DNA of 54,368 bases, filler included, from Anolis carolinensis (Eukaryota), in assembly GCF_035594765.1 (NCBI RefSeq). It is 3 parts of 3 records of this genome, joined end to end, with 100 filler letters (N's around TTAATTAATTAA, not from the genome) between each part and the next. Parts side by side here need not be neighbours in the genome. Positions count along the whole stretch, not along the records: positions 30,707 to 54,368 come from NW_026943847.1; 2 more parts are not named here. One strand, 5' to 3'. Position numbers and translations under genes: made by a program. Below are positions 36,498-37,488 of the stretch, in pieces (the first letter of the stretch is position 1; each line of letters begins with the position of its first letter). The notes beneath the pieces were generated by a model. That model saw nothing but the letters and a program-made list of their open reading frames with translations, was not told the origin of the DNA and made no database searches.

Positions 36498-37488
36498 CTG
36501 AGAGGCCTGCTGTTGTGCTGCAGAAGAGGCCAGAAACATCTCCAGCCAGTCTGCCTGTTGCTGCCTCTGGGACTCCTTGTGAGTAGACTGCAGCCCCAGG
36601 CCCTTTCCATCTGGGTGTGACTCAGCACTTCCTAGGAAGGACCATCTATAAAGCCTGAGTCCACAAGGTCCTGGCAGGGCTGAGAGGCCTGCTGTTGTGC
36701 TGCAGAAGAGGCCAGAAACATCTCCAGCCAGTCTGCCTGTTGCTGCCTCTGGGACTCCTTGTGAGTAGACTGCAGCCCCAGGCCCTTTCCATCTGGGTGT
36801 GACTCAGCACTTCCTAGGAAGGACCATCTATAAAGCCTGAGTCCACAAGGTCCTGGCAGGGCTGAGAGGCCTGCTGTTGTGCTGCAGAAGAGGCCAGAAA
36901 CATCTCCAGCCAGTCTGCCTGTTGCTGCCTCTGGGACTCCTTGTGAGTAGACTGCAGCCCCAGGCCCTTTCCATCTGGGTGTGACTCAGCACTTCCTAGG
37001 AAGGACCATCTATAAAGCCTGAGTCCACAAGGTCCTGGCAGGGCTGAGAGGCCTGCTGTTGTGCTGCAGAAGAGGCCAGAAACATCTCCAGCCAGTCTGC
37101 CTGTTGCTGCCTCTGGGACTCCTTGTGAGTAGACTGCAGCCCCAGGCCCTTTCCATCTGGGTGTGACTCAGCACTTCCTAGGAAGGACCATCTATAAAGC
37201 CTGAGTCCACAAGGTCCTGGCAGGGCTGAGAGGCCTGCTGTTGTGCTGCAGAAGAGGCCAGAAACATCTCCAGCCAGTCTGCCTGTTGCTGCCTCTGGGA
37301 CTCCTTGTGAGTAGACTGCAGCCCCAGGCCCTTTCCATCTGGGTGTGACTCAGCACTTCCTAGGAAGGACCATCTATAAAGCCTGAGTCCACAAGGTCCT
37401 GGCAGGGCTGAGAGGCCTGCTGTTGTGCTGCAGAAGAGGCCAGAAACATCTCCAGCCAGTCTGCCTGTTGCTGCCTCTGGACTCCTTG
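36498..37488 (+). repeat. 182-bp monomer array (5.4 copies) forming the L2 5' UTR
   Basis: Units start at 36498, 36680, 36862, 37044, 37226, 37408; each full unit has TGACTCA and TATAAAG. Confidence 0.97.

Follow-up and report, generated by a model that had tools for sequence, protein, structure and literature searches.

A young L2 LINE in the genome of Anolis carolinensis begins with a tandem array of TATA-bearing units, and related copies begin preferentially at one position of the unit, downstream of its TATA box. We propose that each unit would act as a TATA promoter for a capped RNA that begins with base +1, the first of the next unit. Because the TATA and an AP-1-like site lie upstream of +1, the unit that fires would itself stay uncopied, so that the TATA units of a new copy would number at least one below those of its parent; now and then, tandem duplication in DNA would rebuild an array. 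A copy initiated at the last TATA would hold no TATA and be a dead end; one TATA unit together with the last partial unit would keep an 85-bp direct repeat, from which an array could regrow. Taken as a whole, this model of promoter units, loss with every copy and rebuilding by duplication is probably correct.

The array and the L2 element that carries it

In the window, by which we mean the whole stretch of 54,368 nucleotides that was analysed, the putative promoter array occupies 36498..37488 on the plus strand and comprises five TATA-bearing 182-bp units and a last partial unit (+1..+85). An initial sequence-only reading had counted 5.4 near-identical 182-bp monomers, and TRF returns the same interval with a period of 182, 5.5 copies and 99%; the complete 182-bp units are all identical (4/4), and the array is CpG-free and contains no ATG. 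The TGACTCA and TATAAAG attributed to each full unit are both found in each. The AP-1-like TGACTCA, recognised by its sequence, lies at 36618..36624 (plus strand, repeats at 36800, 36982, 37164 and 37346), and TATAAAG, with its first T at -29, lies at 36647..36653 (plus strand, repeats at 36829, 37011, 37193 and 37375). The predicted start, the A of a CA, falls at 36676 and again at 36858, 37040, 37222 and 37404 on the same strand, as marked by the peak of 5' junctions and often by an extra G. A splice-donor-like GTGAGT stands at +86 of each unit (36579..36584, plus strand), which is exactly where the arrays of families A and B end.

In 5000 dinucleotide shuffles of the unit, TATA[AT]A arises in 0.18% and the AP-1 site in 6.2%, so that chance fails to explain the TATA, and the AP-1 site taken by itself is marginal; the GTGAGT motif alone arises in 12% of unit shuffles. 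The TATA begins at -29 in both the 182-bp and the 186-bp units, at that distance from a CA or TA start as placed by the junctions. An essential role for AP-1 was rejected, since the site is not conserved in families D and E, whose 186-bp unit has TGACTCG instead. The 182-bp unit holds no CpG against 14.8 expected, and the observed/expected CpG ratio of ORF2 is 0.57.

The array had been taken for an L2 5' UTR, and it does form the 5' end of an intact L2 LINE, with ORF1, an endonuclease and reverse transcriptase ORF2 and a tail behind it, all on the plus strand. A 121-bp tether (37489..37609), family-B-like to about 37560 and family-D-like beyond, leads to an ORF1 of 317 aa from the first ATG (37610..38563), for which we found no Pfam family and no atlas match at 0.9. 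ORF2 (38564..41581; 1005 aa stop to stop) contains apurinic endonuclease and reverse transcriptase domains, with an L2-type tail-binding motif at residue 353. The 3' UTR (41582..41912) has a predicted stem-loop at about 41836-41880 and a (TTA)n tail; the z of the hairpin prediction is only -1.4, and tails are (TTA)n or (TAAA)n. The tail-binding residues P, W, E(+17) and W(+20) lie between the two ORF2 domains in 5/5 family representatives and were not found in the neighbouring CR1. On the basis of this motif, as described in the available part of PMC4176376, we assign the element to the L2 clade. Its best reverse transcriptase matches are Anolis carolinensis proteins (94%), none of which carries the name L2. 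Membership in the CR1 clade was rejected, in that the kinship of ORF2 with the resident CR1 amounts to 38% over 173 aa and covers the reverse transcriptase core only.

That CR1 (33904..36497, minus strand, resuming after 41912) is the host of the insertion: the L2 splits its GDSL-esterase ORF1, with a 1-3 bp duplication, and endonuclease and reverse transcriptase pieces follow. All of the empty CR1 sites that we examined (6/6) lack the array and the L2, which rules out the array as a part of CR1; a DNA search with the CR1 flank gave no match. Elsewhere in the window are Gypsy-like LTR retrotransposon ORFs (gag, protease and reverse transcriptase; 30707-32956, minus strand) and, 3' of the insertion and shared by its duplicates, a long pyrimidine-rich minisatellite with a 96-101 bp period (42348-45045). 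An 84-bp repeat in 17 copies (49929-51387, minus strand) lies inside a 536-aa open frame; from its period we take it to be a zinc-finger array, and the frame scanned there gave no zinc-finger Pfam match. A mitochondrial-carrier gene with a Pfam match (8526-9259 and 13635-15263), presumably an ADP/ATP translocase, has the end of its first exon and the donor repeated three times in a 221-bp tandem unit.

Occurrence of the array apart from L2 bodies would have spoken against its being a part of the element. Genome-wide there are 232 matches to the TATA unit, 225 of which fall in the 74 loci examined, a few having gone unseen, and at none of these loci (0/74) is the array free of an L2 tether or body, which rules out a solo satellite or an independent SINE. 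The one doubtful solo array, L090, is a 5' inversion of an L2, and the search for families C and D added further L2-linked loci. L104 and L090 have arrays with internal or 5' inversions, as expected from twin priming.

Where copies begin

Copies were gathered by exact patterns at the junction of array and tether, which are blind to the 5' end, in three sets. The A/B set gave 53 matches, reduced to 50 events with the four places of the window insertion collapsed; in the E/F set, 21 of the 34 matches are array junctions and 13 are internal matches to family B. Loci found through 'not-C before AGGG' did not enter the junction counts, as such a pattern favours copies that start at the peak, and five of them (L094, L098, L111, L163 and L164) have no unit.

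Mapped onto the monomer, the 5' junctions proved to be non-random. Starts fall at -1..+6 in 40 of the 50 A/B copies (25 exactly on the A of CAGGG), at +1..+7 in 15 of the 21 E/F copies (8 exactly at +1) and at -2..+6 in 18 of the 19 C/D copies (10 exactly at +1). Pooled, 73 of the 90 copies start at -2..+7, 43 of them exactly on +1 (p about 4e-75 against a uniform distribution), and the other 17 starts are scattered and resemble ordinary truncations. The start had been placed 33 nt after the TATA, a distance that holds for the window copy, which begins at +5; across the families the peak lies 29 nt after the TATA, 4 nt earlier.

A G precedes 30 of the 43 exact starts (about 25% expected), and the internal unit junctions have C or T before the start position in 211/211 cases and the extra G in 0/211. 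Read by eye, the target duplication ends just before the extra G in L038, L053, L075, L093 and L108, and the extra G falls within it in L065 and L069. Such an extra G marks capped full-length L1 RNA and full-length L1 insertions, according to excerpts of PMC11702581. Because the extra G precedes exact starts and is absent from internal junctions, we infer that the peak is very likely the start of a capped RNA. The earlier proposal that an upstream monomer serves as an external promoter is supported by the junction peak and by the link to L2; the TATA itself would drive transcription, and the one upstream of the peak is likely required for the start.

At window 37404, three runs gave contigs in which an unfamiliar flank meets the unit precisely at +1. 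Two of these three flanks end in G; all are absent from the loci collected here and are possibly insertions of other individuals. At L038/L039 (G000:C1:94106171-94108189), two family-B copies face each other head to head across about 750 bp; their three-unit arrays are identical and both start G+AGGG, but the flanks differ.

Proposed loss and rebuilding of units

Copies carry from 0 to 9 TATA units. Among peak copies, those of the A/B set have 0-8, with none in 6 of 40, and 4 of the 18 in the C/D set lack a TATA unit. L062, L065, L073 and L081 look like one source trimmed at its 5' end in nested steps. Zero-TATA copies group as nearest neighbours (L074/L078/L080 and L093/L101/L103); such clusters fit a parent with a single unit, but they also fit one that had none and still worked. 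Unit number rises with age in family A (rho 0.81, n=9) and falls with age in family B (rho -0.43, n=28). Each of the nine youngest copies in family A has 0-1 unit.

Of the 42 arrays with at least two full units, 10 repeat a private variant, i.e., one found at no other locus of that set, although private variants may derive from parents outside the sample; L062 and L059 display dimer and trimer duplication patterns. Each of the three long arrays tested in family A is uniform within itself and unlike the other two, and they hold no single-unit private changes where 6.9 are expected from the bodies (P=0.001). Family-B arrays have 18 single-unit changes against 19.9 expected, and most look static; because family B as a whole looks static, regrowth would be episodic. 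The window insertion is present at four places, with 5, 5, 3 and 2 units; this is weaker evidence, as two of the four places are themselves small contigs, possibly alternative haplotypes or errors of assembly. L032, 100% identical to the window, is probably the window's own place. All five units of the window match the variant that typically stands last among full units, seen also in L034, a copy with one unit, and the array therefore looks regrown from a single unit. Within the array of two duplicates of the window insertion (L031:2357-3587 and L036, reverse strand 2195-3424) lies an element of 1.23 kb, likely a DNA transposon, that has terminal inverted repeats together with a duplication of 8 bp.

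If the peak were a stop of the reverse transcriptase or a hotspot of microhomology instead of a transcription start, the 30 of 73 peak copies that begin a few bases off +1 would be accommodated; however, this is made very improbable by an extra G that lies outside the target duplication, by an initiator reading CA or TA and by the -29 TATA, and four of the five cases at -1 or -2 overlap the target duplication, the fifth, L182, falling outside that check. It is also conceivable that the start is set by internal elements downstream of +1, as it is by YY1 in mammalian L1, in which case the TATA would be incidental, loss would be frequent but not obligatory, and copies without a TATA could be active. 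Excerpts of PMC10620060 place the starts of mouse Tf 15 bp upstream of YY1, and the nearest-neighbour groups of zero-TATA copies are in keeping with such elements, but the TATA sits at the canonical distance, turns up in 0.18% of the shuffles and holds its -29 spacing in both unit types, and the peak is one base wide as against the 30-bp ranges given for mouse in the part of the literature available to us. We consider internal control of the start unlikely.

The remaining alternative concerns when the arrays are rebuilt. During retrotransposition, reverse transcriptase could jump from the RNA's 5' end onto an internal unit, much as a retroviral U3 is rebuilt; template switching is clear from the promoter swaps between families and from the inverted or rearranged arrays of L090 and L104, and expansion during second-strand priming has been proposed for mouse in the literature, as far as excerpts of it go. 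Jumps from the RNA end are argued against by the internal junctions, because none bears the cap scar; in addition, the nine youngest copies of family A have a single unit at most, and duplicates of one insertion differ in unit number. Rebuilding by such jumps appears rather improbable, and we somewhat favor duplication in DNA after insertion over duplication during insertion.

Sharing among families and relation to known systems

The L2 families that carry the unit number at least five (A-E), and it is also present in older copies of E-like and B-like type. ORF2 identity between these families is 68-95% and last-unit identity is 94-100%; families A and B have identical units and 67.7% ORF2 identity, and family B lacks ORF1. 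Arrays meet the tethers at +39, +85 or +120, and in family C (L089) a tether with a 1.2-kb GC-rich 5' UTR and its own diverged internal repeats stands behind the array. A 104-nt GT..AG segment is kept by 41/41 B-type entries and precisely absent from 18/18 A-type entries, both counts including duplicate fetches, and is cleanly absent from the window tether at 37520/37521. Because this segment is precisely absent and family A turns D-like 40 nt further on, the 5' end of family A likely came from spliced family-B RNA by template switching. The unit cassette has passed from one L2 family to another, on this reading at least once by way of spliced RNA.

The A/B array, ending exactly at the GTGAGT of the unit, joins sequence like that behind the acceptor in older copies, which is suggestive, with only the positional coincidence counting. 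Contigs gave no splice joint in the family-A tether. The 104-nt segment is uncovered in X5 and X6, where the B-specific sequence behind it is covered, and covered in X2 and X19; this coverage was not counted as evidence, since family A may be the source of the joining contig and the labelling as RNA is conjectural. Looking for retroposed copies in which the unit donor joins a non-G base gave two matches, which do not support routine retroposition of donor-spliced RNA: L118 is a point variant, and L119 fits a 4-nt microhomology too. At L119:1437-2400, unit +2..+85 stands alone, ends at the donor and is joined, either as a splice product or by microhomology, to a tandem repeat of ~61 bp, rich in GC boxes, which has 10-nt words in common with the unit.

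Mouse L1 already offers a known case of monomer loss and rebuilding. In excerpts of PMC6454616, PMC9022269 and PMC10620060, mouse L1Md elements (A, Tf, Gf) have tandem units of about 200 bp and a tether, and L1Md A monomers carry AP-1 sites; the first two also describe 5' ends clustered within the unit, and the third reports daughters with 0.6-1.8 fewer units than their donors, the expansion mechanism being described as unresolved in the passages available. Mouse L1Md and anole L2 thus have in common tandem units of ~200 bp in variable number, a tether and clustered 5' ends. In the anole, however, a TATA at -29 and an AP-1-like site lie wholly upstream of a single-base start, whereas in mouse YY1 and AP-1 lie at or after broad starts, and 'TATA' does not occur in the main text of PMC6454616 or PMC9022269. 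The anole units lack CpG where mouse units are CpG islands, the anole host has the L2 motif and a non-poly(A) tail where the mouse host is of the L1 clade, and the anole unit, unlike that of mouse L1Md, is shared by families only 68% identical in ORF2.

In the LTR of retroviruses, at the U3|R boundary, enhancer and TATA lie upstream of +1 and are lost from the RNA. The anole array would work like U3|R, but the element has no 3' terminal repeat and no integrase, and its spare copies would take the place of retroviral strand transfer. The A-module of Dictyostelium TRE5-A is tandemly repeated and internal. As a promoter that would lie outside the transcribed copy, the anole unit resembles that of Drosophila HeT-A/TAHRE, which requires whole elements head to tail at telomeres, whereas the spare promoters of the anole L2 travel in its own 5' end. 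Excerpts of bioRxiv 10.1101/782904 place the 3' promoter of HeT-A/TAHRE outside the transcribed copy, supplied by the upstream repeat, and those of PMC3159450 describe the A-module, part of a non-LTR element, as a 5' module of 200 bp that has promoter activity; TRE5-A belongs to another clade than the anole L2.

Among L2 elements, the available part of PMC4176376 describes two-ORF and ORF2-only forms, a 3' stem-loop and the tail-binding motif for ZfL2-1, ZfL2-2 and UnaL2, and that of PMC5389967 reports 17 anole L2 families (L2AC) of 4.8-6.3 kb; in these parts we found no monomeric TATA 5' end described for any of them, and the excerpt of PMC2615633 held nothing relevant. In the literature listings searched and the papers named here, we found no description of the array, and no L2 in which a TATA promoter lies upstream of a start confined to a single base.

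We put forward tentatively, as somewhat less than an even prospect, that a group of vertebrate LINEs gave up the internal promoter for a portable, CpG-free, LTR-like TATA cassette held in spare copies, of which at least one would be spent per jump. Such a lineage could survive only if an inserted copy regrew its array or a family captured that of another through RNA template switching, including from spliced RNA, and family A may be running out. LINE promoters are stated to be necessarily internal in the accessible text of PMC6454616, and a TATA box upstream of a single-base start would be a clean exception to that rule. With about 90 young copies, a start this sharp and variants private to single loci, loss and regrowth can be counted. 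Excerpts of PMC5381506 describe promoter arrays and the replacement of promoters as largely mammalian, judging from L1, and report lizard L1 5' UTRs as free of tandem duplication; both arrays and replacement occur in the present L2 families of a lizard.
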